Shown here one piece after another: positions 35,692-45,045 of a DNA stretch of 64,000 nucleotides. The position numbers and the translations under genes are program-made. Where the stretch lies: the sequence record MH252123.1; one strand, written 5' to 3'. Source of the DNA: Klebsiella phage ZCKP1. Position 1 is the first letter of the stretch. The number at the start of each line of letters is the position of its first letter. The notes below the pieces were generated by a model that was not told the DNA's origin, ran no database searches, and was given only the letters and a program-made list of their open reading frames with translations.

Positions 35692-35848
35692 GTTTTACCA
35701 TTATCAACCAAGGTCTTTGCTACAGCATACTCCTTCCCATTAACAAGGAAACAATAAACGATAAAAGATTTCCCTATTGTTACTGTCCTAGTAACCTCTA
35801 CGCGTTTAACACCTTGCATGTATTTTGCCTTACCGGAATAGAGTAAAA

Positions 35849-36130
35849 TCATTTTGCATTCCTCTTGTTGTTGATAACATCCATAGCAGTATATGGTTTA
35901 TTAGTGCCATGATACTCCAGAATCATTGGAGAGCCTTCTTGCACTACTTCAAAGATACCATAAACAGAACTTTCAGCAAATACCATTTGCTTCGTGCCTT
36001 CATCGTTTACAACGAGAGAAAACTTCTTGCCTGTCCCGTTGAGGATCTCGTATTTCTTGCCAGCAGTGAATAATCCAGAGTACCACTCATTATCTGTTGC
36101 TTTTACACACTTCAGGAAAGTCTTGATCAT
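35849..36130 (-). CDS. hypothetical protein (93 aa)
   Basis: ORF. Confidence 0.4.
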   Translation of the reverse strand: MIKTFLKCVKATDNEWYSGLFTAGKKYEILNGTGKKFSLVVNDEGTKQMVFAESSVYGIFEVVQEGSPMILEYHGTNKPYTAMDVINNKRNAK

Positions 36131-36480
36131 TTCTTTTTGCTCCTCTTTTTAGATTTCTCATACAAACCTAACACAGCCGCTTCTTTTGCACAAGTAGGAA
36201 CTGAAGTCATTCCTCTTCTTTTTGCTTCTGGAAGATTGAGTGTCCACCATCCGAACCAATAAATTTGGTCTGCCGTGAGTGGTTCAGCCATTGGATCTGC
36301 CTCCTGCTCCTCAAGACGTTGCAACGCTTCTTCAATCTTCTCGATTGGTGTGTCAAAGACGAATGCCTCCGTATCAAATTTATCTTTCTTAGGAACTGAT
36401 TTGGCTACTTTGAGAACCTCGTTTTTCGGTTTCTTAGTAACGTTCTTTGGCTTTGATAACTTCTTCGGTGTTTTCGCCAC
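36127..36480 (-). CDS. lysine-rich (histone-like termini) protein, probable nucleic-acid binder
   Basis: AKTPKKLSKPKNVTKKPK N-terminus and KKRSKKK C-terminus. Confidence 0.45.
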   Translation of the reverse strand: MAKTPKKLSKPKNVTKKPKNEVLKVAKSVPKKDKFDTEAFVFDTPIEKIEEALQRLEEQEADPMAEPLTADQIYWFGWWTLNLPEAKRRGMTSVPTCAKEAAVLGLYEKSKKRSKKK

Positions 36481-36673
36481 TTACTACCTCCATACGATCT
36501 AAAAAGTCATTCACAAATCTCCAGTAACGTTGACCTGTTCTAAGATCTTCATAGATAACTACAGGATCAAACACTTTAGATATTCCGGCAGGTTTTGGAA
36601 ATTCCACTACCGTATATAAACCACCTTTTGCTACACAAGAATAGGTTACGCCTGTAATTGGATAGTTGCTCAT
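36434..36673 (-). CDS. hypothetical protein (79 aa)
   Basis: ORF. Confidence 0.4.
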   Translation of the reverse strand: MSNYPITGVTYSCVAKGGLYTVVEFPKPAGISKVFDPVVIYEDLRTGQRYWRFVNDFLDRMEVVSGENTEEVIKAKERY

Positions 36674-36864
36674 TTCTTTACGTACTCCATGATTGGGGTA
36701 TGGTCGCCAGTAAGCGTAACACGGCTGTAGGACACATCTTGTGTCTTCAGTGTATCAATCCACTCTAAGAAGTGTTCTTTCGCTTCTGTGTAGTTCTGTG
36801 TGCCTTTAACAACGTGTATACCATCTAGAGTTACACGGAATACCATTTGAATAACGTCTTTCAT
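36670..36864 (-). CDS. hypothetical protein (64 aa)
   Basis: ORF. Confidence 0.4.
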   Translation of the reverse strand: MKDVIQMVFRVTLDGIHVVKGTQNYTEAKEHFLEWIDTLKTQDVSYSRVTLTGDHTPIMEYVKK

Positions 36865-36960
36865 TTCTTACCTCCTTTGTTGTCAAAATAACTTACCAGA
36901 ACATCATGAACCACACACATGGCAAAAATCAGAACAATTGTTGTCAGGACTGGATTCTCA

Positions 36961-37284
36961 CTAATTAGTGCTATCATCTTTAACCACCTCCAATTGCCTT
37001 TCGAGTTTGACTTTGTTTGAGAACTGATAATGACACAACTTACATTGCATGTCAACAATCTGATCGTGATTTAACCCTACAATTTTAACTTCCTTTGCAC
37101 CATCCCATTCCAAATACTCAAAGCCATCCAAATGATTACTCTTGTCCAACAAGAATGCTATCTGCTGCCATTCAATCTGAATGTCATTTAAATGATATGC
37201 TGCACAGAAGATATCCTCGTAGTAAAAGACGATCATTGTCATTGCTTCGTCCAGCACAACTACCTCTTGTCTTGTAAATCTCAT
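36961..37284 (-). CDS. hypothetical protein (107 aa), first gene of the leftward early unit
   Basis: RBS taggaggctaga ATG. Confidence 0.5.
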   Translation of the reverse strand: MRFTRQEVVVLDEAMTMIVFYYEDIFCAAYHLNDIQIEWQQIAFLLDKSNHLDGFEYLEWDGAKEVKIVGLNHDQIVDMQCKLCHYQFSNKVKLERQLEVVKDDSTN

Positions 37285-37538
37285 TCTAGCCTCCTAAACG
37301 CGTCTCTGACGCACTTTTTATATATAAGATGATAAATCACCTTACCTAGTAAGTGAACTTGCTCTACGAGCCTCTTATGAAGCTTATGTTATAGGCTATA
37401 CTATTGCTACCTGTTTAAGCAAGGTTTTTGCACACAGAAAATAATTTTAATAAAACTCTTGACTTTTGTGTTCGAAGTATGCTACCCTAGAAATCTATTA
37501 ACGAGCGCAGCGAGTTAAGGTTTTAGGTTGTTGATGTA

Positions 37539-37736
37539 GTACTCTGTACTCAAGTACTGTACTCCGTACTAGATTAATAATTATTAAATATTAATAATAA
37601 ATAATTATTAGATCTAACAAACAGGTACAGTGTATCAGAACTGGTACGTACAGATCAACTTCTATCAATCAAAAATAAAATAATAAATTATTATAAATAA
37701 TACTTGATCTATAGATCAGTATGAAGTACAGTACGG
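37539..37736. repeat. GTACT direct repeats (x5), perfect palindromes TTAATAATTATTAA, GTACGTAC and TGATCTATAGATCA, and inverted arms GTACTGTACT / AGTACAGTAC in divergent intergenic region
   Basis: read directly from the sequence; AT-rich core flanked by GTAC arrays. Confidence 0.7.
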
Positions 37737-37764
37737 AACATCTTAACAAGAATGGAGGTGTGCA

Positions 37765-37950
37765 ATGATTAGTGAGAATCCGTGCAAATGGCATCATGTG
37801 CCTATTAAAGATTGTATGTCTTGTAATCCACGTTCTATTTATAACATTGCATCTTATGATGATGACAATGTGTTAGACGATGATGAAGGATGGGAGGATT
37901 TAGATTGGACTGGTTATGAAACCAAAAAGGATAAAATTATTCCTAGTTGA
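37765..37950 (+). CDS. hypothetical Cys-containing acidic protein (61 aa)
   Basis: RBS aatggaggtgtgca ATG. Confidence 0.45.
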   Translation: MISENPCKWHHVPIKDCMSCNPRSIYNIASYDDDNVLDDDEGWEDLDWTGYETKKDKIIPS

Positions 37951-37987
37951 CTTAAGATATCCTTCGTGCTAAACTAGAAGTGAGGAG

Positions 37988-38239
37988 ATGCCGATCACTC
38001 CCCATTTGGGGTTCGAAGGATATATGCAAAATAGCTTTTATTTTAGGTGCCGTGCTTGTAATAGGCATTTGACAAACCACTCCAGACGTGATAAAAATGG
38101 AGTCATCAAGGAATCAGACCTCTGTTCTATTTGCACAGGTTTGGCTTTTGATGATAGTCCCGAAAGGGTTTATCAGCATCAATGTATAACAGACGTTCTC
38201 GTGTCAAACTTGGTAGAGGACGAACAACTAACAGACTAG
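37988..38239 (+). CDS. small zinc-finger protein (CRACNRH...CSICTG)
   Basis: RBS GTGAGGAG ATG. Confidence 0.45.
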   Translation: MPITPHLGFEGYMQNSFYFRCRACNRHLTNHSRRDKNGVIKESDLCSICTGLAFDDSPERVYQHQCITDVLVSNLVEDEQLTD

Positions 38240-38248
38240 GAGGAACAA

Positions 38249-38496
38249 TGTCTCTATTAGAAAAACACGTGTTTGAAGATGGTAACGGCAATGCAGTTTT
38301 TCTTTTCCATCCAGAAAAATACACATCTGAAAACAATGGTACAACTTCTATTGTAATCACTAAAGATGTTAAAGTTATTGATTTCTTGGCTCTGATGCGA
38401 GAGATGGATCTTGAAATTAACACTTTTAACGCAGAAGCTTTGGTTGTTGCTCTTCTGGAAAAGAAAGATAGTGAAGAAGTAGCAGAATATGCTTAA
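38249..38496 (+). CDS. hypothetical protein (82 aa)
   Basis: RBS ctaggaggaaca ATG. Confidence 0.45.
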
Positions 38497-38503
38497 ATAA
38501 CTA

Positions 38504-38533
38504 TTGACAAACGTATCCTTCATATGTTAGGAT
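38504..38533 (+). promoter_or_regulatory. sigma70 promoter (ctaTTGACAa-18-TAGGAT) ahead of the first tRNA block
   Basis: shares the extended ctaTTGACAa -35 context with the promoters at 39091, 40772 and 46741. Confidence 0.45.
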
Positions 38534-38742
38534 ACGTTCATCAAGTGTGGTAACAGGGTCGTTGACTTTTGTTAAGAGGGGCTTGCACTGCGGTAGTGTT
38601 AGAGACTACTTCTTCAGAGGTTAGCTACCAAAGAGGAAAAGGAACAGTCTCGGCTCAAGAACTTTTACGCTGAAAGTTGGGCTTGGTCTTAGAGAATGTA
38701 GCGGTTCTCTACAATCGTCAGCGTCTCTGTTACCACATTTAT

Positions 38743-38817
38743 GGCCCTGTAGCTCAATGGGAGAGCTGTCGGCTCATAACCGATAGGTAGCTGGATCGAA
38801 ACCAGCCAGGGCCACCA
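38743..38817 (+). tRNA. tRNA-Met/Ile2 (anticodon CAT), CCA encoded
   Basis: cloverleaf folded by eye: acceptor GGCCCTG/CAGGGCC, anticodon loop CTCATAA, T-loop GGATCGAAACC. Confidence 0.75.
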
Positions 38818-38819
38818 AC

Positions 38820-38894
38820 GTCTTTATGGTGTAATGGATAGCACAGGAGTCTTCTAAACTCTTAGTCAAGGTTCGATTCCTTGTAAAGACACCA
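38820..38894 (+). tRNA. tRNA-Arg (anticodon TCT), CCA encoded
   Basis: acceptor GTCTTTA/TAAAGAC, loop CTTCTAA, T-arm CAAGGTTCGATTCCTTG. Confidence 0.7.
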
Positions 38895-39090
38895 GAACAT
38901 TTTAACATGAATTAGCTCAAGTGATTTGAACACACTACTGATCATGGTGGTAGAGAATGAGGCAAGTATGTCAGACATTATAAACAAAGGCCACGGTTAT
39001 ATTAGAAGACATAAATGCTCGAAGAGCACCGTTCGTGGAGAACGGGGGTTGGTGGAGTCACCATTCATGGTAAAATGTTTTAAAAAACTA

Positions 39091-39120
39091 TTGACAACTA
39101 ACATTATTTTATGTTAGATT
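39091..39120 (+). promoter_or_regulatory. sigma70 promoter (ctaTTGACAa-18-TAGATT) ahead of the second tRNA block
   Basis: consensus -35 with the extended upstream context. Confidence 0.45.
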
Positions 39121-39128
39121 ATAAGTAT

Positions 39129-39219
39129 GGAAGGGCAAATCGACGTGGCGACGAAAACGGTCTTGAAAACCGCCGAGCTTGAAAGAGCCTTGGGAGTTCG
39201 ACTCTCCCTCCTTCCGCCA
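39129..39219 (+). tRNA. tRNA-Ser (anticodon TGA), long variable arm, CCA encoded
   Basis: acceptor GGAAGGG/TCCTTCC, loop CTTGAAA, variable-arm hairpin, T-arm GGGAGTTCGACTCTCCC. Confidence 0.7.
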
Positions 39220-39223
39220 GATT

Positions 39224-39309
39224 GGTAGATTGGTGAAATGGTAGCCACGACAGTTTGCTAAACTGTAGTCGGAAACGGCGTGTAGGTTCGAGTCCTACAT
39301 CTACCGCCA
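39224..39309 (+). tRNA. tRNA-Ser (anticodon GCT), long variable arm, CCA encoded
   Basis: acceptor GGTAGAT/ATCTACC, stem ACAGT/ACTGT, loop TTGCTAA, T-arm GTAGGTTCGAGTCCTAC. Confidence 0.75.
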
Positions 39310-39439
39310 AGTTCTTTTTAATATAGCTTACTTTAGCAGAGTAAATCTTCGGCAAGTGGCGGTAACCACTTTACCGATAACTCATAGTTAGTGGTGTGAA
39401 CACTGGCTATTTTAAAAAGAATTTAAATATTAGTATTTA

Positions 39440-39527
39440 GGTGAGTTAATTCCGTAGGGGTAGCGGGGCAGACTGTAAATCTGTTATCATTGCGATTCGG
39501 GTGGTTCGACTCCATCACTCACCACCA
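39440..39527 (+). tRNA. tRNA-Tyr (anticodon GTA), long variable arm, CCA encoded
   Basis: GCAGACTGTAAATCTGT anticodon arm identical in type to bacterial tRNA-Tyr; acceptor GGTGAGT/ACTCACC. Confidence 0.7.
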
Positions 39528-39533
39528 AATTAA

Positions 39534-39619
39534 GATGAGTTGGCTGAATGGTTTAAGCGGCGGACTGTTAATCCGTGTTCGAAAGAACGATATAGGTTCA
39601 AATCCTATACTCATCGCCA
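39534..39619 (+). tRNA. atypical tRNA with Asn anticodon arm (GTT) plus 15-nt variable-arm hairpin, CCA encoded
   Basis: anticodon arm GCGGACTGTTAATCCGT equals the E. coli tRNA-Asn arm; variable region GTTCGAAAGAACGAT forms GTTC/GAAC hairpin; discriminator G. Confidence 0.55.
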
Positions 39620-39626
39620 GAATTAT

Positions 39627-39704
39627 GGACTTGTAGAGTTAAGGTAAACCCCCCAGTCGCCAAGAGGCTTCTGAAATTGCAGGTATCGAATCCTGCCGAG
39701 TCCC
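39627..39704 (+). ncRNA. degenerate tRNA-like element (good acceptor and T-arm, no canonical anticodon arm)
   Basis: acceptor GGACTTG/CGAGTCC and GCAGG-TATCGAAT-CCTGC T-arm with 8-nt loop; middle region forms CAGtcGCCaagaGGCttCTG hairpin instead of an anticodon arm; no CCA. Confidence 0.35.
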
Positions 39705-39710
39705 AGCTTT

Positions 39711-39785
39711 GCTCCTATAGTATAATGGCTATTACAACGGTTTTGTAATCCGTGGATCTCTGTTCGATTCAGAGTGGGAGCACCA
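39711..39785 (+). tRNA. tRNA-Thr (anticodon TGT), CCA encoded
   Basis: acceptor GCTCCTA/TGGGAGC, loop TTTGTAA, T-arm CTCTGTTCGATTCAGAG. Confidence 0.65.
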
Positions 39786-39964
39786 ACACAACATTAAGGG
39801 CACTGTGATTGATCGTCGTATCCTGTGCACAAGGTCTGTTCGAAAGACAGTGTTCTTAGTATTGTGTTGATCACAAAAAGAGTCACCTGAAACTTGACCG
39901 GAGTAGGGTTGGATGGGGCAAAAGAAGAAGCGGCTCTCCCATCGACAGCAACGAAGAATAATAT

Positions 39965-39993
39965 TTGACTTTGGTTTTGTATTATTTTAAGTT
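39965..39993 (+). promoter_or_regulatory. sigma70 promoter (TTGACT-17-TAAGTT) upstream of higA-like gene
   Basis: good -35/-10 hexamers with 17-nt spacer. Confidence 0.4.
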
Positions 39994-40140
39994 AGCTTAC
40001 CGAACGTAGGGCTAGTCACCCAACGGGATACTCGTCACTGTCCCACTCAAAGAAAAGAAGAACCAAACTGTTAACGTTAAGAAAAAATTACCCTTAACTA
40101 ATCCATTTTATCACAAATGGATTTCATATGTCAATATGTT

Positions 40141-40160
40141 TGCGCGTTGCACAGCGCGCA
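40141..40160 (+). promoter_or_regulatory. palindromic operator-like site TGCGCG-ttgcacag-CGCGCA immediately upstream of higA RBS
   Basis: perfect 6-bp inverted repeat 25 nt before the start codon. Confidence 0.45.
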
Positions 40161-40184
40161 AAATCAGAGTATTTAGGAGGTTAC

Positions 40185-40526
40185 ATGGTCACATTGCACA
40201 AACCTATGCACCCCGGCGAGTTTATCCGCGAAGTATATTTAGAGCCGTTAGAGCTTCAAATAGGAACGTTTGCAGAAAAGCTTGGTGTTGATACATCAAC
40301 CGTTAGCCGGTTAGTAAACCAAAAAGCTGACCTTTCTTATGAAATGGCATTACGCCTATCAAAAGCCTTAGGGCGTTCTGCTGACTCTTGGATGAAAATG
40401 CAAATAGCATATGGTTTATATCGTGCTCAAGATAAAGTAAATCTTGAAGAAGTTGAGGTGGTTTACTGCCCACGGAACTTGGATGCTCCTGAAAAACAGG
40501 TCCATGAATTTTATGAAAATATCTAA
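40185..40526 (+). CDS. higA: HigA-family antitoxin-like XRE helix-turn-helix protein (no cognate toxin ORF found)
   Basis: MHPGEFIREVYLEPL...TFAEKLGVDTSTVSRLVNQKADLSYEMALRLSKALGRSADSWMKMQ matches the HigA/VapI antidote family; RBS AGGAGG-5nt-ATG. Confidence 0.7.
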   Translation: MVTLHKPMHPGEFIREVYLEPLELQIGTFAEKLGVDTSTVSRLVNQKADLSYEMALRLSKALGRSADSWMKMQIAYGLYRAQDKVNLEEVEVVYCPRNLDAPEKQVHEFYENI

Positions 40527-40702
40527 AAACGATATTTCATTTAGGTAAAGAAAAGCTACTAACCATAGGGGCTTTTTGTCTCTACACCTGTGTATTTATG
40601 TGAAGACCTAAGGCAGCATCGTTATTCCTGAAGATGCTTAAACAGCGGTCTTGTACACCCTGTTACCACGGTTCAGAAGTTCCCCAACTTACTGAACATT
40701 CG

Positions 40703-40733
40703 AAAAACCACCCCCCAGGTGGTTTTTCGTTTC
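40703..40733 (+). terminator. rho-independent terminator AAAAACCACCCCCCAGGTGGTTTTTCGTTT
   Basis: CCACC/GGTGG stem followed by a T-run. Confidence 0.65.
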
Positions 40734-40771
40734 AGGATTAAAGATACTCTGCGTCCCACTCAATAAAACTA

Positions 40772-40801
40772 TTGACAACCAATAGTAAAATGTAGTATAG
40801 T
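40772..40801 (+). promoter_or_regulatory. sigma70 promoter (ctaTTGACAa-18-TATAGT) ahead of the third tRNA block
   Basis: consensus -35 with the extended upstream context. Confidence 0.5.
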
Positions 40802-40812
40802 AAAGATATAGG

Positions 40813-40886
40813 GCGTTCTTGGTGTAGCGGTAGCATTCCGTCCTTCCAAGTCGGCGGCACGAGTTCGATCCTCGTAGAACGCTCCA
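40813..40886 (+). tRNA. tRNA-Gly (anticodon TCC), CCA encoded
   Basis: acceptor GCGTTCT/AGAACGC, loop CTTCCAA, T-arm ACGAGTTCGATCCTCGT. Confidence 0.65.
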
Positions 40887-40984
40887 AATTATTTAATAAA
40901 GGGTTGCCAGAAAACTTTCTCTTTTACTCATGGTTTTCTCCTTCTCTCACACCTCTTCTGGTTGCCCTTCATTAAATGATTTAT

Positions 40985-41060
40985 TGGTTTGTAGTGTAGT
41001 CAGGTAGCACACGACACTTTGACTGTCGTAGGTTTGGTTCAAATCCAGACAGACCAGCCA
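40985..41060 (+). tRNA. tRNA-Gln (anticodon TTG), CCA encoded
   Basis: acceptor TGGTTTG/CAGACCA, stem CGACA/TGTCG, loop CTTTGAC, T-arm TTTGGTTCAAATCCAGA. Confidence 0.7.
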
Positions 41061-41153
41061 TATAACAAAGGTGAGTCACTACCTCAAGTGTGAAGTTAAA
41101 AAACGAGGAGCCGCCGAACACTTTCTTTTGCGGTGTACCTTTAGAATGTTATG

Positions 41154-41230
41154 ACGGAATTTAGCTCAGTTTGGTAGAGTGTACGCTTTGGGAGCGTATT
41201 GTCGCAGGTTCGAATCCTGCAATTCCGACC
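41154..41230 (+). tRNA. tRNA-Pro (anticodon TGG), CCA encoded
   Basis: acceptor CGGAATT/AATTCCG, D-arm GCTCAGTTTGGTAGAGT, loop TTTGGGA, T-arm GCAGGTTCGAATCCTGC. Confidence 0.75.
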
Positions 41231-41236
41231 AATTAA

Positions 41237-41310
41237 ATGTTTCGTAGTTCAATGGTAGAACCCACGACTGATAATCGTGAGATACAAGTTCGATTCTTGT
41301 CGAAACAACC
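41237..41310 (+). tRNA. tRNA-Ile (anticodon GAT), CCA encoded
   Basis: acceptor TGTTTCG/CGAAACA, stem CACGA/TCGTG, loop CTGATAA, T-arm ACAAGTTCGATTCTTGT. Confidence 0.75.
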
Positions 41311-41312
41311 AG

Positions 41313-41385
41313 TTTCCCGTTAGACTTACAGGATAAGAGTTCCACAGCTTATTGTGATGCTGGTTCGAATCCAGCACGGGATACC
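41313..41385 (+). ncRNA. tRNA-like element / possible tRNA pseudogene (canonical T-arm GCTGGTTCGAATCCAGC and acceptor, body does not fold canonically)
   Basis: acceptor TTCCCGT/ACGGGAT with a T-T first pair; no acceptable 5-bp anticodon stem found by eye; ends CCT. Confidence 0.3.
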
Positions 41386-41388
41386 TAA

Positions 41389-41467
41389 TAGCGGGATAGA
41401 GGAGTCTGGTCGTCCTCGCCAGTTTCATATGCTGGAGATCATCGGTTCAAATCCGATTCCCGCCTCC
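41389..41467 (+). tRNA. tRNA-Met (anticodon CAT) with A1-C72 mismatch (initiator-like feature), CCA encoded
   Basis: acceptor AGCGGGA/TCCCGCC with A-C at 1:72, stem CCAGT/GCTGG, loop TTCATAT, T-arm ATCGGTTCAAATCCGAT. Confidence 0.6.
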
Positions 41468-41582
41468 AAATATCGCTTGCCAGCGGTATCTTTGAAGACC
41501 TTGCCTGGTTCCTTCTAAGATGGAGGGGTGCGACTCCTTAACGCACAATTATAATAAAGCATTTCAACTTAACAGTATTTAT

Positions 41583-41607
41583 TAGCCTCCTTATTGGAGG
41601 CTTTTTG
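41583..41607 (+). terminator. rho-independent terminator TAGCCTCCTTATTGGAGGCTTTTT
   Basis: 7-bp stem plus T5 run. Confidence 0.65.
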
Positions 41608-41625
41608 CTATCTATTGAATAAAAC

Positions 41626-41654
41626 TTGACTTATTATTTTTTATATGTTAAGAT
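41626..41654 (+). promoter_or_regulatory. sigma70 promoter (TTGACT-17-TAAGAT) for late/packaging module
   Basis: hexamers with 17-nt AT-rich spacer. Confidence 0.45.
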
Positions 41655-41675
41655 AAAGTTTAGGAGGATTTTATT

Positions 41676-41972
41676 ATGCCTAAACTAAAACGTGGTCGTG
41701 GAAGACCAACAGCCGAAATGCAACAGATTTACGCAATGGATGCGGCGCAAGCAAGTGTAAAAGAATTATTTGCAGAGCATTATTTAGAAGCTATGCGGTA
41801 TATTGTTGAACTTGTTAATGATAAGGATGCAGCAAAACCTCTCCGCTTCCAAGCAGCTAAAGCTATTAAAGAGCAAGTAGAAGAATGGTTAGAAGAACAT
41901 TATGAAGCTATGGAAGAAGAAACCCCTGCCGTGCAGAATACAGATGACGTTCCTAAAAAGATCGTAATCTAA
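41676..41972 (+). CDS. small basic/acidic protein with N-terminal KRGRGRP (AT-hook-like); candidate DNA-binding/small terminase-like
   Basis: RBS tttaggagg; position ahead of the large terminase. Confidence 0.35.
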   Translation: MPKLKRGRGRPTAEMQQIYAMDAAQASVKELFAEHYLEAMRYIVELVNDKDAAKPLRFQAAKAIKEQVEEWLEEHYEAMEEETPAVQNTDDVPKKIVI

Positions 41973-42332
41973 TCCCTCTCCTCTCTTGGGGCTTTGCCCC
42001 TCCTCCTTGTTATTTTTAACACCCCTCTCCGAAAGGTTAGGGGTTTTTTATTTTTAATACTTGCAATTGTATATACTTTTGTGATAAGATCAGATATGAG
42101 GAGGATAAAATATGCGCAATTTTGTAGTTAAAAATGATTTTAACCGTTCTTCTTATCATAAAGATAAAAAGAATGATTACACACGGGCTTGGAACTTGGA
42201 GGAAGAACTTTATGATGACAGAGAAGACGTGGGAAGAGATCCTAGCGGAGGCTCAACCGATGGAAGTGAAGAAGATAGTTAATAATGCCCCTTCTCTTCC
42301 TAAAATAAAATTTTACGAGGAAGTAGAAGATA

Positions 42333-42725
42333 ATGAATCTAAAGACTAAAACTGTATTAGGTTTTGTTTTAATTGTTGTTCTTATTCTTGCCGGAATGTT
42401 TGCTTATAACAAGATACATGAGTCTGGCTACAAAGATGGTGTTGCCTATCAAACGCAATTATATCAAGCAGCCCAAGCAAAAGCAAAACAGGATTTTGAT
42501 GTTCTTCAAAAAAGAGCAGATGAAGAAAGAGCATTATTAAATACCCAAATAAACAACTTGTCTAAAAACAATGCACAATTAAAAGCAGATTTAGAGAAGA
42601 AGAAACAAACGATCAATGAGGATACAACGAATTATGCAAAAACTAATTCTGGCAGTATGTCTTGCTTTGCCCCTAATGATGACGGGTTGTTCATCATCAA
42701 CAAAAGCTTCCCCAGTTCTTATTGA
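42333..42725 (+). CDS. i-spanin (Rz-like; N-terminal TMD + coiled coil)
   Basis: TVLGFVLIVVLILAGMFAY TMD followed by a Q/A/K-rich helix. Confidence 0.55.
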   Translation: MNLKTKTVLGFVLIVVLILAGMFAYNKIHESGYKDGVAYQTQLYQAAQAKAKQDFDVLQKRADEERALLNTQINNLSKNNAQLKADLEKKKQTINEDTTNYAKTNSGSMSCFAPNDDGLFIINKSFPSSY

Positions 42726-42960
42726 TGAGTGTAAGGTTGTAGCCATAGAAAAGGTTAAAGGTCCAGATTCGGATTTGATGGATAAAGTATCGACACCTGT
42801 GCCATACACTAAAAATCAAATTGCAAAAGGGGTTAGTAGATCTGAAGTTGTTAACAACCAAACTCAAAACAACGCTCTTTGGGAGCAAGATAGACGAAAG
42901 GTTTTAGGTTTACAAACATATATTAAAACACTGCAAGAAAAAGGTATTATTGCTGAATAA
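42634..42960 (+). CDS. o-spanin (Rz1-like lipoprotein) overlapping i-spanin in +1 frame
   Basis: signal peptide with lipobox LMMTGC; embedded/overlapped gene architecture. Confidence 0.55.
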   Translation: MQKLILAVCLALPLMMTGCSSSTKASPVLIDECKVVAIEKVKGPDSDLMDKVSTPVPYTKNQIAKGVSRSEVVNNQTQNNALWEQDRRKVLGLQTYIKTLQEKGIIAE

Positions 42961-42969
42961 GGAGGGAAT

Positions 42970-45045
42970 GTGGCAAAGAAAAAGGCAGCAGGTAGTTTAG
43001 CTGGAGTAGATATTGAAGTAAAGGCTCAACCAGGTAAACAGACTCTTGCAATGGATTTAATGCCAGAAGTTATGATTTATGGTGGTGCCGCTGGATGTGT
43101 TTCTGCTGAAACGGAATATCTTACAAAAGATGGTTGGAAACAGATTAGTGAATATTCGGGAGAGGATATTTACCAATACAACCCTAAGAATAAGCGTTTA
43201 GAATTGGTAACACCTTACTTTGTAGAATACGATTTAAATGGAGATAATCTATACAGAATAACAAATGGTGTAGGATTGTTCCAAGAACTTAGTATGGAAC
43301 ACCGTTTTGTATTCTATAAGAAAAAGAAATCAAAGAAACATTTCGAGATTCTTGTAGGAGATCTTATTGCATTACAGCAAATAGGAAAACCCCTGCAAGG
43401 TTATGTAGAAAATCCATTCGGTAAACGTGTTCCTTTTAACATACCTGGTAAAAAGAGCACTTACTTAAAAATACACGAGGTTATTTCAACAGATGATAAG
43501 AAATATTGTTTTGAGACTCCAAGCAGCTATATTGTCTTTAGACGTGGCGATCACTGCTTCGTTACTGGGAATAGCGGCAAGTCTCGTCTGCTATTGCTGA
43601 AAGCTTTAAAATACGCCTACAAAGACCCTTTGTTTGGTGGAATACTTTTCCGTAAGAACACCACTGCTCACCGTAAACCAGGTGGTCTGTTTACAGAAGC
43701 AAAACGTTTGTATCTTCCTTTACAACCGCACGTAAAAGAAAGTACAATGGATATCATTTTTGAAGCCACTGGTGGTGGAACCCTCAAATTTGACCATTTG
43801 GAAAATGATAACGTAACAGCAGAAACAAACCATCAGGGTACACAGTATTCAATGGTAGGTTTTGATGAGTTAACCCACTTCACGCAATATGAAATGCTCT
43901 ATCTTCTGGGACGTATGCGTTCAGAATCAGAAACAAGCTTCATGTTGTGCACATGTAACCCCGATGCAGATAGTTGGGTTTTGAATTGGGTATTACCTTA
44001 TCTCGATGAGGGCGGTTATCCTAGAGAAGATATGTGTGGTAAACAAAAATATTTCATCATTGTTAACGATGAACCTGTTTTTGCTGACACACCTGAAGAA
44101 CTGAAAGAAAAATATCCAGAAAACTGTTTCATGGAAAACCCTAATACAGGGGAGACAGTTGTTATTGAACCACAAACTTTCGTATTTATCGGTGGGACAA
44201 TATTTGATAACCCAGAATTGATTAGGCTTAACCCTAATTATTTAGCACAGCTTAAATCACAAACAGCAATCAAAAGAGCACAACTCTTGGACGGCTGTTG
44301 GTTTGCACGTATACAGAAAGAGTCTTTCTTCCAACGTGAATGGTTGCATAAGATATCTTATAAAGATGTTCCTAATAATCTTAAACTAATGCGAGCATGG
44401 GATAAAGCTGTTTCAGTTCCTACAGAAACTTATCGTTATCCAGACTATACAACATCTGTCAAAATGGGTAAAGACCAAGATGGTAATATCTACATCTTTG
44501 GTGACTATGATTATGATGCTGTGGATGAGAAAAGTAAAATTTTCGGAAGGTTTCGAAGATTACCTGGGGAAAGGGATAACCTGATTCTAAATCAATGTAA
44601 GATTGATGGACCAGAAGTTACAGTAGTGCTTCCTAAAGACCCATCTGGTGCTGGGACAATAGAATATACAGAATCTGCAAAGAAACTTATTCTAGAGGGT
44701 TTTGTTGTTAAACCAGATGCTATGCCAGGTAACAAGAAAAAGCTTCAGCGTTTTATGCCTTTTAGTAGTGCGTGTCAAAACGGTTTTGTTTATATTGTTG
44801 AAGATTCTTTCCCTAATGTGGAAACTCTAACCCACTTTTATAAAGAATTGGAATCTTTCAATGGTGAAAGATCTACAGCCACTATTAAAGATGACATTCC
44901 CGATGCTGCTGCTTCTTGTTTTAATACTCTGTCAAAAGAGAATACTTTCAAGGCAGTAGCTATCCCTACAACAACAAATGCTCCTACAGGATACAGTAGA
45001 ATGAACAGCGGATTTCACCAACCGTATAGTGTCCGTAAAAGATAA
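42970..45045 (+). CDS. terL: terminase large subunit, Walker A interrupted by mini-intein
   Basis: GTG start after GGAGGG; 691 aa; position before portal; after intein removal the P-loop reads YGGAAG-SGKS. Confidence 0.8.
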   Translation: MAKKKAAGSLAGVDIEVKAQPGKQTLAMDLMPEVMIYGGAAGCVSAETEYLTKDGWKQISEYSGEDIYQYNPKNKRLELVTPYFVEYDLNGDNLYRITNGVGLFQELSMEHRFVFYKKKKSKKHFEILVGDLIALQQIGKPLQGYVENPFGKRVPFNIPGKKSTYLKIHEVISTDDKKYCFETPSSYIVFRRGDHCFVTGNSGKSRLLLLKALKYAYKDPLFGGILFRKNTTAHRKPGGLFTEAKRLYLPLQPHVKESTMDIIFEATGGGTLKFDHLENDNVTAETNHQGTQYSMVGFDELTHFTQYEMLYLLGRMRSESETSFMLCTCNPDADSWVLNWVLPYLDEGGYPREDMCGKQKYFIIVNDEPVFADTPEELKEKYPENCFMENPNTGETVVIEPQTFVFIGGTIFDNPELIRLNPNYLAQLKSQTAIKRAQLLDGCWFARIQKESFFQREWLHKISYKDVPNNLKLMRAWDKAVSVPTETYRYPDYTTSVKMGKDQDGNIYIFGDYDYDAVDEKSKIFGRFRRLPGERDNLILNQCKIDGPEVTVVLPKDPSGAGTIEYTESAKKLILEGFVVKPDAMPGNKKKLQRFMPFSSACQNGFVYIVEDSFPNVETLTHFYKELESFNGERSTATIKDDIPDAAASCFNTLSKENTFKAVAIPTTTNAPTGYSRMNSGFHQPYSVRKR
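43096..43572 (+). mobile_element. mini-intein (159 aa, no endonuclease domain) in terL P-loop
   Basis: starts Cys (CVSAETEYLTKDGW, block A-like), internal SMEH (block B-like), ends ...HCFVTGN followed by Ser. Confidence 0.65.

Follow-up and report, generated by a model that had tools for sequence, protein, structure and literature searches.

What is an antitoxin gene without its toxin doing among the transfer RNA (tRNA) genes of a virulent phage, and where did it come from? The question is raised by a stretch of 64,000 nucleotides of Klebsiella phage ZCKP1 (sequence record MH252123.1; the whole stretch is called the window here), in which an earlier note, made from the letters alone, had placed a gene for a 113-amino-acid (aa) HigA-family protein inside the tRNA cluster. 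That placement is correct, the gene (higA) lying between those for tRNA-Thr and tRNA-Gly. The window comes from a virulent myophage of E. coli that resembles phAPEC8 (Stephanstirmvirinae, Phapecoctavirus); over 20 kb it shares 98-98.6% identity with phages such as ASO2A and PNJ1809-36, and its tRNA gene layout agrees with the phAPEC8 annotation. We report here that the segment carrying higA is almost certainly the remnant of a small ColE1-type plasmid encoding both higB and higA. Judged by sequence comparison, such a plasmid recently supplied higA together with its operator and terminator, a provenance that the earlier note had missed.

The assignment of the 113-aa protein to the HigA family was borne out by profile searches for HigA and XRE proteins and by the predicted fold. 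HigA matched the TIGR02607 antidote_HigA model with 96.2 bits (E 8e-28; cut-off 47.7) and Pfam HTH_3 with 34.8 bits (cut-off 23), fell into PHROG 1381 ('plasmid antitoxin with HTH domain') and kept 23 of the 23 invariant columns of a 34-sequence family alignment. Its sequence matches in the Protein Data Bank (PDB) comprised YbaQ, GraA and the HigA proteins of E. coli, P. vulgaris and P. aeruginosa. An AlphaFold model with a predicted local distance difference test (pLDDT) score of 87 contains helices at residues 10-22, 26-33, 37-44, 52-62 and 66-84; confidence drops after about residue 95, and pLDDT is below 50 from residue 103, in the C-terminal tail. Comparison of this model with the PDB using Foldseek gave HigA, GraA, PA4674, VapI or YbaQ as each of the best 41 matches. 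Exact-protein look-ups of the 113-aa and 132-aa forms of HigA returned no match. Together, these data indicate that the window holds an intact HigA-family antitoxin gene.

The toxin that would be expected beside such a gene is absent. A tblastn search with the HigB protein of the related plasmids described below, run against the whole 64-kb window, gave a best E value of 1.6. Open reading frames (ORFs) of at least 20 aa were enumerated in six frames between 38.5 and 42 kb, and none of eight small ORFs scanned against Pfam (from among those of 25-56 aa, in or beside the inserted segment) had a match. As the six-frame ORF list, the tblastn search and the Pfam scan all came up empty, the possibility of a toxin ORF overlooked near higA was rejected; the statement that no HigB-like toxin ORF lies on either side thus holds also when small ORFs are searched, and no adjacent cognate toxin was found in the window. 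The sole remainder of higB in the window is 16 nt long.

The source of the gene became apparent when positions 39800-40800 were compared by megablast with 50,697 phage records. This search identified 71 relatives, each of which matched only the two ends of the query, with an interval of 288-290 bp as against 1001 bp in the window. The additional DNA is approximately 97.5% identical to small, non-mobilizable ColE1-type plasmids (2.6-5.1 kb) of E. coli and Citrobacter; matches of this donor type comprise 13 PLSDB plasmids of 2.6-5.1 kb and six plasmids among E. coli complete genomes. All matching plasmids are annotated with HigA, to which the phage protein is 96-97% identical, and the best-covered ones are also annotated with a RelE/ParE-family toxin, which proved to be a PF05015 HigB-like protein (58.8 bits). 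We take the transfer to have run from plasmid to phage because the plasmids hold a complete module and replicon and the phage relatives have an empty site. The higBA plasmid family is common: identical plasmid HigA occurs in at least 1000 contigs as a 132-aa call and in 756 contigs as a 113-aa call. Modules with a PF05015 toxin are usually arranged as toxin-first operons. Within the donor family, higB and higA are instead divergent, with an intergenic region of 215-275 bp (loci L002 378-1265 and L005 2452-3387, and plasmid-like contigs L006-L008), and this layout is kept in homologues whose HigA is only about 60% identical to the phage protein.

The junctions were mapped by aligning the window with phAPEC8 and with plasmid NZ_CP104687.1, to which the plasmid coordinates given here refer. 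The phage backbone ends at 40050 and picks up again at 40753, and the 11-mer GTCCCACTCAA, present once at the empty site of phAPEC8, is found at both ends of the insert in the window. Between these ends lie plasmid pieces in an order permuted relative to the plasmid circle: positions 421-436; then 796-1387, which carries the higA control region, higA and its terminator (aligned as window 40053-40648 with plasmid 790-1387, 97.7% identity); then 134-257 (window 40643-40764, 96.8%). A simple 540-bp deletion of the toxin gene from the plasmid was considered and rejected, since two plasmid pieces are permuted rather than merely separated by a deletion. The second and third pieces meet at an internal illegitimate joint with the microhomology CAGCGG.

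To what extent is this arrangement shared by other phages? Searches of IMG/VR with the left-junction pattern and the operator pattern gave no matches, a search there for relatives was likewise empty, and the exact phage-type operator (see below) was not found in contigs from one genome per species in GTDB. A single match to that operator was found in the JGI metagenome collection, on a contig of 150,704 bp (OBRO01000001.1) whose genome recurs as ERZ1741619 NODE_1 (coverage 189) and as a DAVI15-1 scaffold. This genome, OBRO01, is 98.7% identical to window 35719-43603, with 103 differences over approximately 7,900 positions (1.3%) and identical junctions, and its insert has differences of its own (R95 and T101 of HigA, as against C95 and A101 in the window). 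A third type of carrier was found by reading the 90% protein cluster of HigA. This long form is represented by five Logan contigs from five sequencing runs, in which higA stands beside a 75-codon ORF with a weak PF05015 match; its context is that of a phage, with a tRNA array upstream and a large terminase gene approximately 3 kb downstream.

The long form shares both the CAGCGG internal joint and the right junction with the window, and therefore descends from the same capture event. However, it retains plasmid 419-795, that is, most of higB and the whole intergenic region. Its higB is a pseudogene, native to approximately residue 59, then frameshifted by an additional G and cut at its 3′ end by the junction. 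As related phage contigs hold a higB pseudogene beside the same higA, the toxin gene was once attached. A complete type II toxin-antitoxin module is thus lacking in all three carriers, higB being gone from the window and OBRO01 and frameshifted and cut in the long form. The left junctions also differ: the long form reads GTCAC and then, across the junction, CATCCCACTCAAAGAAAATACG, with the plasmid-type CA, whereas the window reads GTCACTGTCCCACTCAAAGAAAAG, with the phage-type TG. These differences fit a history in which separate deletions disabled higB.

The backbone of the long form is that of another genus, Justusliebigvirus, being 98% identical to PD06, phiWec187 and muut. Four-way alignments of its flanks, which included the window, phAPEC8 and muut, revealed a mosaic: a Phapecoctavirus-type tract of about 1.6 kb (contig L013 1075-2702) is nearly identical to both the window and phAPEC8 but bears little resemblance to muut. 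It begins just past tRNA-Asn, takes in tRNA-Thr, the spacer, the insert and the tRNA-Gly promoter, and stops at the end of tRNA-Gly, after which the sequence is again of the muut type. The cassette therefore reached the second genus by homologous exchange. The limits of the mosaic coincide with tRNA genes, which suggests that tRNA genes act as recombination handles between phage genera.

These carriers also bear on the possibility that the locus is an assembly chimera or that its cognate toxin was overlooked. Small plasmids commonly contaminate phage preparations, but the junctions are shared by independent assemblies that differ by single-nucleotide polymorphisms within the insert as well as beyond it, the backbone is colinear to either side, and the ends carry an 11-bp duplication; for a hidden pair, the HigB search was empty and none of the eight scanned ORFs resembled a Pfam family. 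We regard this explanation as barely credible. The same junctions in independent assemblies indicate that the insert is real and inherited rather than an artefact.

The right-hand part of the insert is a fragment of the plasmid replicon. It contains a remnant of the ColE1 antisense RNA I gene (RNAI), which scores 63.2 bits against the Rfam model (gathering score 47), compared with 101.5-104.5 bits for intact donor copies. The remnant is without its own promoter and the first ~13 nt, and a functional ColE1 origin is absent, plasmid 1388-2641 and 1-133 (including the RNAI promoter) having been lost. It is therefore very improbable that the purpose of the insert is to express RNA I against the replication of resident plasmids, with higA incidental. 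In favour of such a role, the remnant exceeds the gathering score and its minimum-free-energy fold still forms three stem-loops. Set against this, in addition to the deleted promoter and 5′ end, the score has fallen from 101-105 bits in donors to 63 and 56 bits in the phages, stem pairs have been lost independently in each phage lineage, a loop is changed as well, and a terminator hairpin stands between RNAI and higA; the lost promoter and the falling score led us to reject a functional RNAI. The loop concerned is that of stem-loop 3, which is apparently inverted in the long-form contigs (CCACTTGGGGGGTGG versus CCACCCCCCAGGTGG; contig ~2520-2540, window 40710-40722), a change that looks like a hairpin-loop inversion.

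How might the captured gene be controlled? The earlier note had described a perfect TGCGCG-N8-CGCGCA palindrome resembling the autoregulatory sites of HigA. The palindrome is real and rightly placed, and is in fact longer (TTTGCGCG-N8-CGCGCAAA); it is the sole match in 64 kb even when 2 mismatches are allowed, and none of 100 shuffled sequences contained a match. Its likely strength is another matter. The plasmid operator, TTTGCG-NN-TTGCGCAA-NN-CGCAAA, consists of a central palindrome and two distal half-sites, an architecture known from P. aeruginosa HigA, and is kept in plasmid homologues down to 60% protein identity. All phage copies have lost the central palindrome through changes at 40151, 40154 and 40155, and their outer arms are lengthened. 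By this alignment, the palindrome at 40139-40162 is the outer half-site pair of the conserved plasmid operator in a derived form. On P. aeruginosa HigA operators two cooperating dimers bind, and losing either or both distal half-sites abolishes detectable binding (PMC6987408); by analogy, the phage-type operator is probably weakened rather than optimal.

The note had further assumed that a sigma70 promoter precedes the gene. This part does not hold, as the site in question, at 39965, is a sub-threshold element of the phage backbone that is also present in phAPEC8, which has no such gene. Its -10 (TAAGTT) agrees with the consensus at 3 of 6 positions, it was not called by the consensus promoter scan, and it lies approximately 85 bp upstream of the first inserted base (40051); on the first two grounds and its backbone origin it was rejected as the promoter proper to higA. 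The plasmids have a conserved distal promoter, TTGACT-16-TAGTAT, beside higB, and this has been deleted in the window. By our own reading, a weak candidate proximal promoter, below the scan threshold, remains at 40108-40137; the final T of its -10 (40137) is found in phage copies only, the plasmids having a G. The backbone has a weak promoter-like site at 39965 and, in tandem with it, a strong one at 40772-40801; with the insertion lying between them, the cassette could be read from the weak site and the strong one is undisturbed. Two hairpins, the higA terminator (40551-40576) and the RNAI terminator (40701-40729), separate higA from the intact tRNA-Gly promoter.

The control region has several other features. 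A strong promoter-like site on the minus strand (40105-40134) is plasmid-derived; it faces higB in the plasmids and the phage spacer and tRNA-Thr, in antisense orientation, in the window, where, if active, it would yield an RNA antisense to part of the tRNA cluster. Within the plasmid intergenic region, two conserved promoter-like sites stand face to face, TTGACT-16-TAGTAT on the plus strand by higB and TTGACA-17/18-TAAAAT or TACAGT on the minus strand by the operator, and transcripts from the two would overlap by approximately 90 nt. The decamer TTAACGTTAA, an exact match to the core palindrome of the P. aeruginosa HigA operator (PMC6987408), occurs once in 64 kb (0.10 expected); this copy belongs to the insert and lies 105 bp upstream of higA. 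The closest plasmids have the decamer too, the 82% and 60% homologues do not, and its significance is clouded by the fact that 2 of the 3 base-reading residues of P. aeruginosa HigA differ in the phage protein.

To assess whether the captured gene has been under constraint, differences were polarised against two plasmids and compared across three phage lineages (the window, OBRO01 and the long form). The higA ORF is open in all three. Codons 6-94 contain no change in 267 positions, as against 17 in 683 for the surrounding non-coding and pseudogene remnant with the operator cluster excluded (Fisher p = 0.005). Changes in the protein are confined to its ends: three events fall in the 60 bp of the C-terminal tail (R95C in the window, A101T in OBRO01 and Y110stop in the long form), and codons 2 and 5 are changed in the short-form lineage (F2V, Q5H). 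Position 95 is polymorphic in plasmids as well (R95H). Five of the seven substitutions common to all three lineages fall in 47 bp, 40137-40183 (binomial p = 2.4e-5), a stretch that spans the -10, the operator and the ribosome-binding site; one of them is in the -10 (CAATAG to CAATAT), three in the operator and one adjoining the start codon. None of the plasmid-context copies examined, including homologues with HigA 82% and 60% identical, has any of these five phage alleles, and all the 132-aa gene calls likewise begin with MSIGLRVAQG in plasmids and with MSICLRVAQR in phage contexts. A joint origin of the operator variant and the N-terminal changes within a phage was rejected, since the long form pairs the operator variant with plasmid-type codons 2 and 5.

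The same data are what a neutral account has to accommodate. According to this account, the insert is passenger DNA from an accidental, illegitimate recombination between phage and plasmid, slowly decaying in a tolerant spacer between genes, and HigA is silent or useless. RNAI and higB are plainly decaying, the distal promoter is gone, all amino-acid changes in the phages lie in the termini of HigA with a premature stop at codon 110 in one lineage, and the insert is rare, being found in 0 of 71 sequenced relatives. Nor would its capture call for a special site, as we estimate that chance alone would give a 2.6-kb plasmid and a 150-kb phage some 47 12-mers in common, and 713 bp is a negligible packaging load. 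However, decay has bypassed the helix-turn-helix core (0/267 changes versus 2.5% in the flanks), the ORF has stayed open in three lineages, and the deletions spared only higA, the proximal control region and the terminators. Furthermore, the substitutions cluster non-randomly at the -10 and operator, and the cassette has persisted over 1.3% backbone divergence and a transfer between genera. A neutral relic seems to us rather unlikely, but it is the main rival of the function proposed below. In solved complexes of HigA and GraA, structures that are among the best fold matches of the phage protein, the folded domain itself touches the toxin; the frozen HigA core is thus compatible with neutralisation.

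A conserved core could also serve DNA binding, and HigA might act solely as a regulator that represses the plasmid higB/higA control region or a phage or host promoter. The DNA-binding fold alone is conserved in the phage copies and the subfamily tail drifts, but the conserved core fits toxin binding equally well. The exact TTAACGTTAA palindrome lies within the insert, but this single copy arrived with the plasmid DNA, and neither the phage-type operator nor the ancestral core TTGCGCAA was found elsewhere in the 64 kb. The latter result also removes the suggestion, made in the earlier note, that HigA could regulate the tRNA block, which we rejected for want of further operator copies. HigA proteins do repress other genes, for example mvfR in P. 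aeruginosa (PMC6987408), but repression of higBA transcription would leave toxin protein that has already been made. We consider a purely regulatory role improbable.

These observations provide the basis for a model of how the locus arose. The whole plasmid circle would have entered the tRNA-Thr/tRNA-Gly spacer of a Phapecoctavirus by a single crossover at the 10-12-bp microhomology GTCCCACTCAA(T). With the crossover at GTCCCACTCAAT (plasmid 246-257), the integrated plasmid would have been flanked by the repeat. The origin and the RNAI promoter would then have been lost by microhomology-mediated deletion at the CAGCGG joint, and separate deletions in two lineages would subsequently have disabled higB. 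As read from the junctions, a single crossover followed by deletions appears to be the most economical model; insertion of a double-ended fragment followed by one further deletion could also have produced the same arrangement. The flanking tRNA genes would have served as portable homology, through which the cassette moved to a second phage genus.

With regard to function, we propose, as the best available reading, that the phage protein is a hijacked antitoxin, which neutralises plasmid HigB during infection; the chances that this is so appear to us to be evenly balanced. HigA would be made during infection from the proximal promoter, by read-through from the site at 39965, or both. The labile HigA of the host would not be replaced after infection, so that the HigB of resident higBA plasmids would be freed; a phage HigA dimer would bind this ribosome-dependent mRNase, and a shutdown resembling abortive infection would be averted. 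Without the central operator palindrome, HigA autorepression would be relieved and the supply of antitoxin kept high. More tentatively still, we put forward as a possibility that the carriers represent a fossil series of antitoxin theft, in which a whole higBA plasmid was integrated, its origin and then its toxin (possibly twice) were shed, the operator was rewired for constitutive HigA, and the putative anti-HigB cassette is passing between genera via tRNA genes.

Several points weigh against the proposed neutralisation of HigB. The HigA and HigB proteins match no PADLOC defence model, and the pair is a candidate restriction system only. The distal plasmid promoter is missing from the window, and the promoter candidates that remain are weak by consensus. 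The subfamily-specific C-terminal tail is altered in every phage lineage (R95C, A101T, Y110stop), and if this tail is the toxin-neutralising element, antitoxin function may not have been maintained. Part of the divergence counted above may lie on the plasmid side, and the operator variant may come from an unsampled donor allele. As there are only three carrier lineages, and none among 71 related genomes, any advantage would be local at best. Finally, movement between genera could reflect hitch-hiking in ordinary mosaic exchange of the tRNA region.

The coordinates of the features discussed are collected in Table 1.

Table 1. Features of the higA insert and its surroundings; positions are those of the window unless marked as plasmid.
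Feature	Position	Strand	Remarks
Insert	40051..40763	+	713 bp missing from 71/71 related phage genomes; plasmid-derived cassette
Left microhomology copy GTCCCACTCAA, 11 bp	40040..40050		Single-copy in phAPEC8 empty site
higB relic	40041..40056	-	16/16 nt identical to plasmid 421-436; codons ..FFEWD.., 3′ part of higB
TTAACGTTAA	40071..40080		Identical to P. aeruginosa HigA core operator palindrome (PMC6987408)
Perfect 9-bp inverted repeat AATCCATTT-N6-AAATGGATT	40100..40123		Over two overlapping promoter-like sites
Promoter-like site TTGACA-18-TAAAAT, upstream TG	40105..40134	-	Strong, 11/12 matches
Candidate proximal higA promoter TTATCA-18-CAATAT, extended -10 TG	40108..40137	+	Own reading; below scan threshold
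Operator palindrome TTTGCGCG-N8-CGCGCAAA	40139..40162		In higA leader, just downstream of candidate -10
Plasmid-type operator TTTGCGCGTTGCGCAAGGCGCAAA
Phage-type operator TTTGCGCGTTGCACAGCGCGCAAA
Shine-Dalgarno AGGAGG	40175..40180	+	Precedes higA ATG
higA	40185..40526	+	113 aa; ATG 40185, TAA 40524-40526
higA terminator-like hairpin and T-run	40551..40580	+	Plasmid origin; stem mismatch at 40558 in phage copies only
ColE1 RNAI remnant	40629..40730	+	Rfam RF00106; plasmid-derived part from 40643
Internal illegitimate joint, microhomology CAGCGG	40643..40648		Plasmid 1387 to 134; common to three phage lineages
Internal joint sequence GATRCTTAAACAGCGGTCTTGTACACC	within insert		Plasmid/plasmid junction
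RNAI terminator hairpin CGAAAAACCACC/GGTGGTTTTTCG	40701..40729	+	Likely second transcription stop before tRNA-Gly promoter
Right microhomology copy GTCCCACTCAAT	40753..40764		Identical to plasmid 246-257; backbone resumes
tRNA-Thr	39711..39785	+	Left tRNA flank; within Phapecoctavirus-type tract that accompanies insert into Justusliebigvirus-backbone contigs
Phage-backbone promoter-like site TTGACT-17-TAAGTT	39965..39993	+	Sub-threshold; also in insert-free phAPEC8
Phage promoter-like site TTGACA-18-TATAGT	40772..40801	+	Directly upstream of tRNA-Gly; unaltered by insertion
tRNA-Gly	40813..40886	+	Right tRNA flank; 3′ end is right limit of tract moved into Justusliebigvirus backbone

Some further observations concern the tRNA region and the phage records. 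Positions 39440-39524 have an Rfam tRNA match of 39 bits that was missed by ARAGORN, and phAPEC8 has tRNA-Tyr at the matching place in its array. Two matches in the tRNA region are below threshold, one resembling tRNA-Sec (39129-39215; 37.4 bits versus 47) and one resembling RyhB (41555-41609; 27.6 bits versus 55). Several phage records labelled Campylobacter, Acinetobacter or Pseudomonas show 98% identity to genomes of Stephanstirmvirinae from E. coli; their host labels are probably wrong, or the records contaminated.

We found no description of this locus in the literature, but its parts have counterparts in known systems. The protein resembles the antitoxins of HigB(PF05015)-HigA modules (Rts1/P. 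vulgaris HigA, P. putida GraA, P. aeruginosa PA4674 and E. coli CFT073 HigA) in its TIGR02607 score (96 bits), its five-helix XRE fold (TM 0.77-0.90), the invariant residues of its closest homologues, the palindrome over its candidate promoter region and the PF05015 partner in the donors. It differs in that the phage has no toxin, the donor genes are divergent rather than a toxin-first operon, HigA has an extra C-terminal tail of ~20-45 aa, and the central operator palindrome is lost. The toxins of the PF05015 family act as ribosome-dependent mRNases, and HigB-type modules of the three-component higBAC kind can bring about abortive infection (PMC11980606).

The closest precedent for the proposed function is phage PhiTE-F, which evaded ToxIN after acquiring the antitoxin ToxI from a plasmid by recombination (Blower et al. 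2012, PMC3475682). In both cases a virulent myophage takes the antitoxin of a plasmid toxin-antitoxin system by recombination and leaves the toxin behind; acquisition from the toxin-antitoxin locus itself is evident here from the 96-97% identity and the mapped junctions. The PhiTE-F antitoxin is an RNA (type III), its capture was selected in the laboratory and relied on pre-existing pseudo-ToxI homology, and escape was demonstrated. Here, in contrast, the antitoxin is a type II protein, the phages are natural or metagenomic, the joins are at microhomology, stages of decay are preserved, and function is predicted from sequence.

Solo 'plasmid antitoxin with HTH domain' genes of phages (PHROG 1381; Aeromonas phage Aes012, Vibrio phage ICP1, Stx phages) belong to the same family and annotation category. 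There are 146 phage records with a HigA homologue, all less than 60% identical to the window HigA; the donors of the solo PHROG 1381 genes are untraceable, whereas the window copy matches an extant plasmid gene at 96-97% identity and bears the scars of RNAI and higB. Other phages make proteins that counter toxins, and two of these, T4 Dmd and AdfA (against DarTG), are to our knowledge not homologous to the cognate antitoxin. Dmd, AdfA and an ICP1 protein, the last described as an antitoxin mimic (PMC10760071), are alike in the logic proposed here, that of a neutraliser of the toxin supplied by the phage. Their activity has been shown experimentally, whereas the activity of the present protein, which is itself the cognate antitoxin, is putative. 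Antitoxin theft and solo HigA-like genes in phages are thus already known; this locus is unusual in the continued visibility of its donor, its junctions, its scars and an intermediate stage, and in the exchange between genera via the tRNA flanks.

What would the finding mean for these phages and their hosts? Even if higA is inert, the insert cleanly illustrates how plasmid DNA is captured at microhomology by a virulent phage and then decays. If the proposed function is correct, the locus would be the counterpart in nature, with a type II protein antitoxin, of the PhiTE/ToxI hijack seen in the laboratory, and the small cryptic higBA plasmids that are very common in Enterobacteriaceae would be abortive-infection defences against large rV5-like myophages. 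It follows as a prediction that plasmid higBA restricts phAPEC8-like phages, which are used in phage-therapy cocktails, so that a single gene of 342 bp could affect host range. Phage tRNA clusters may offer conserved homology for swaps of accessory cassettes between genera and, if the function holds, tRNA arrays would double as exchange sites for counter-defence genes.

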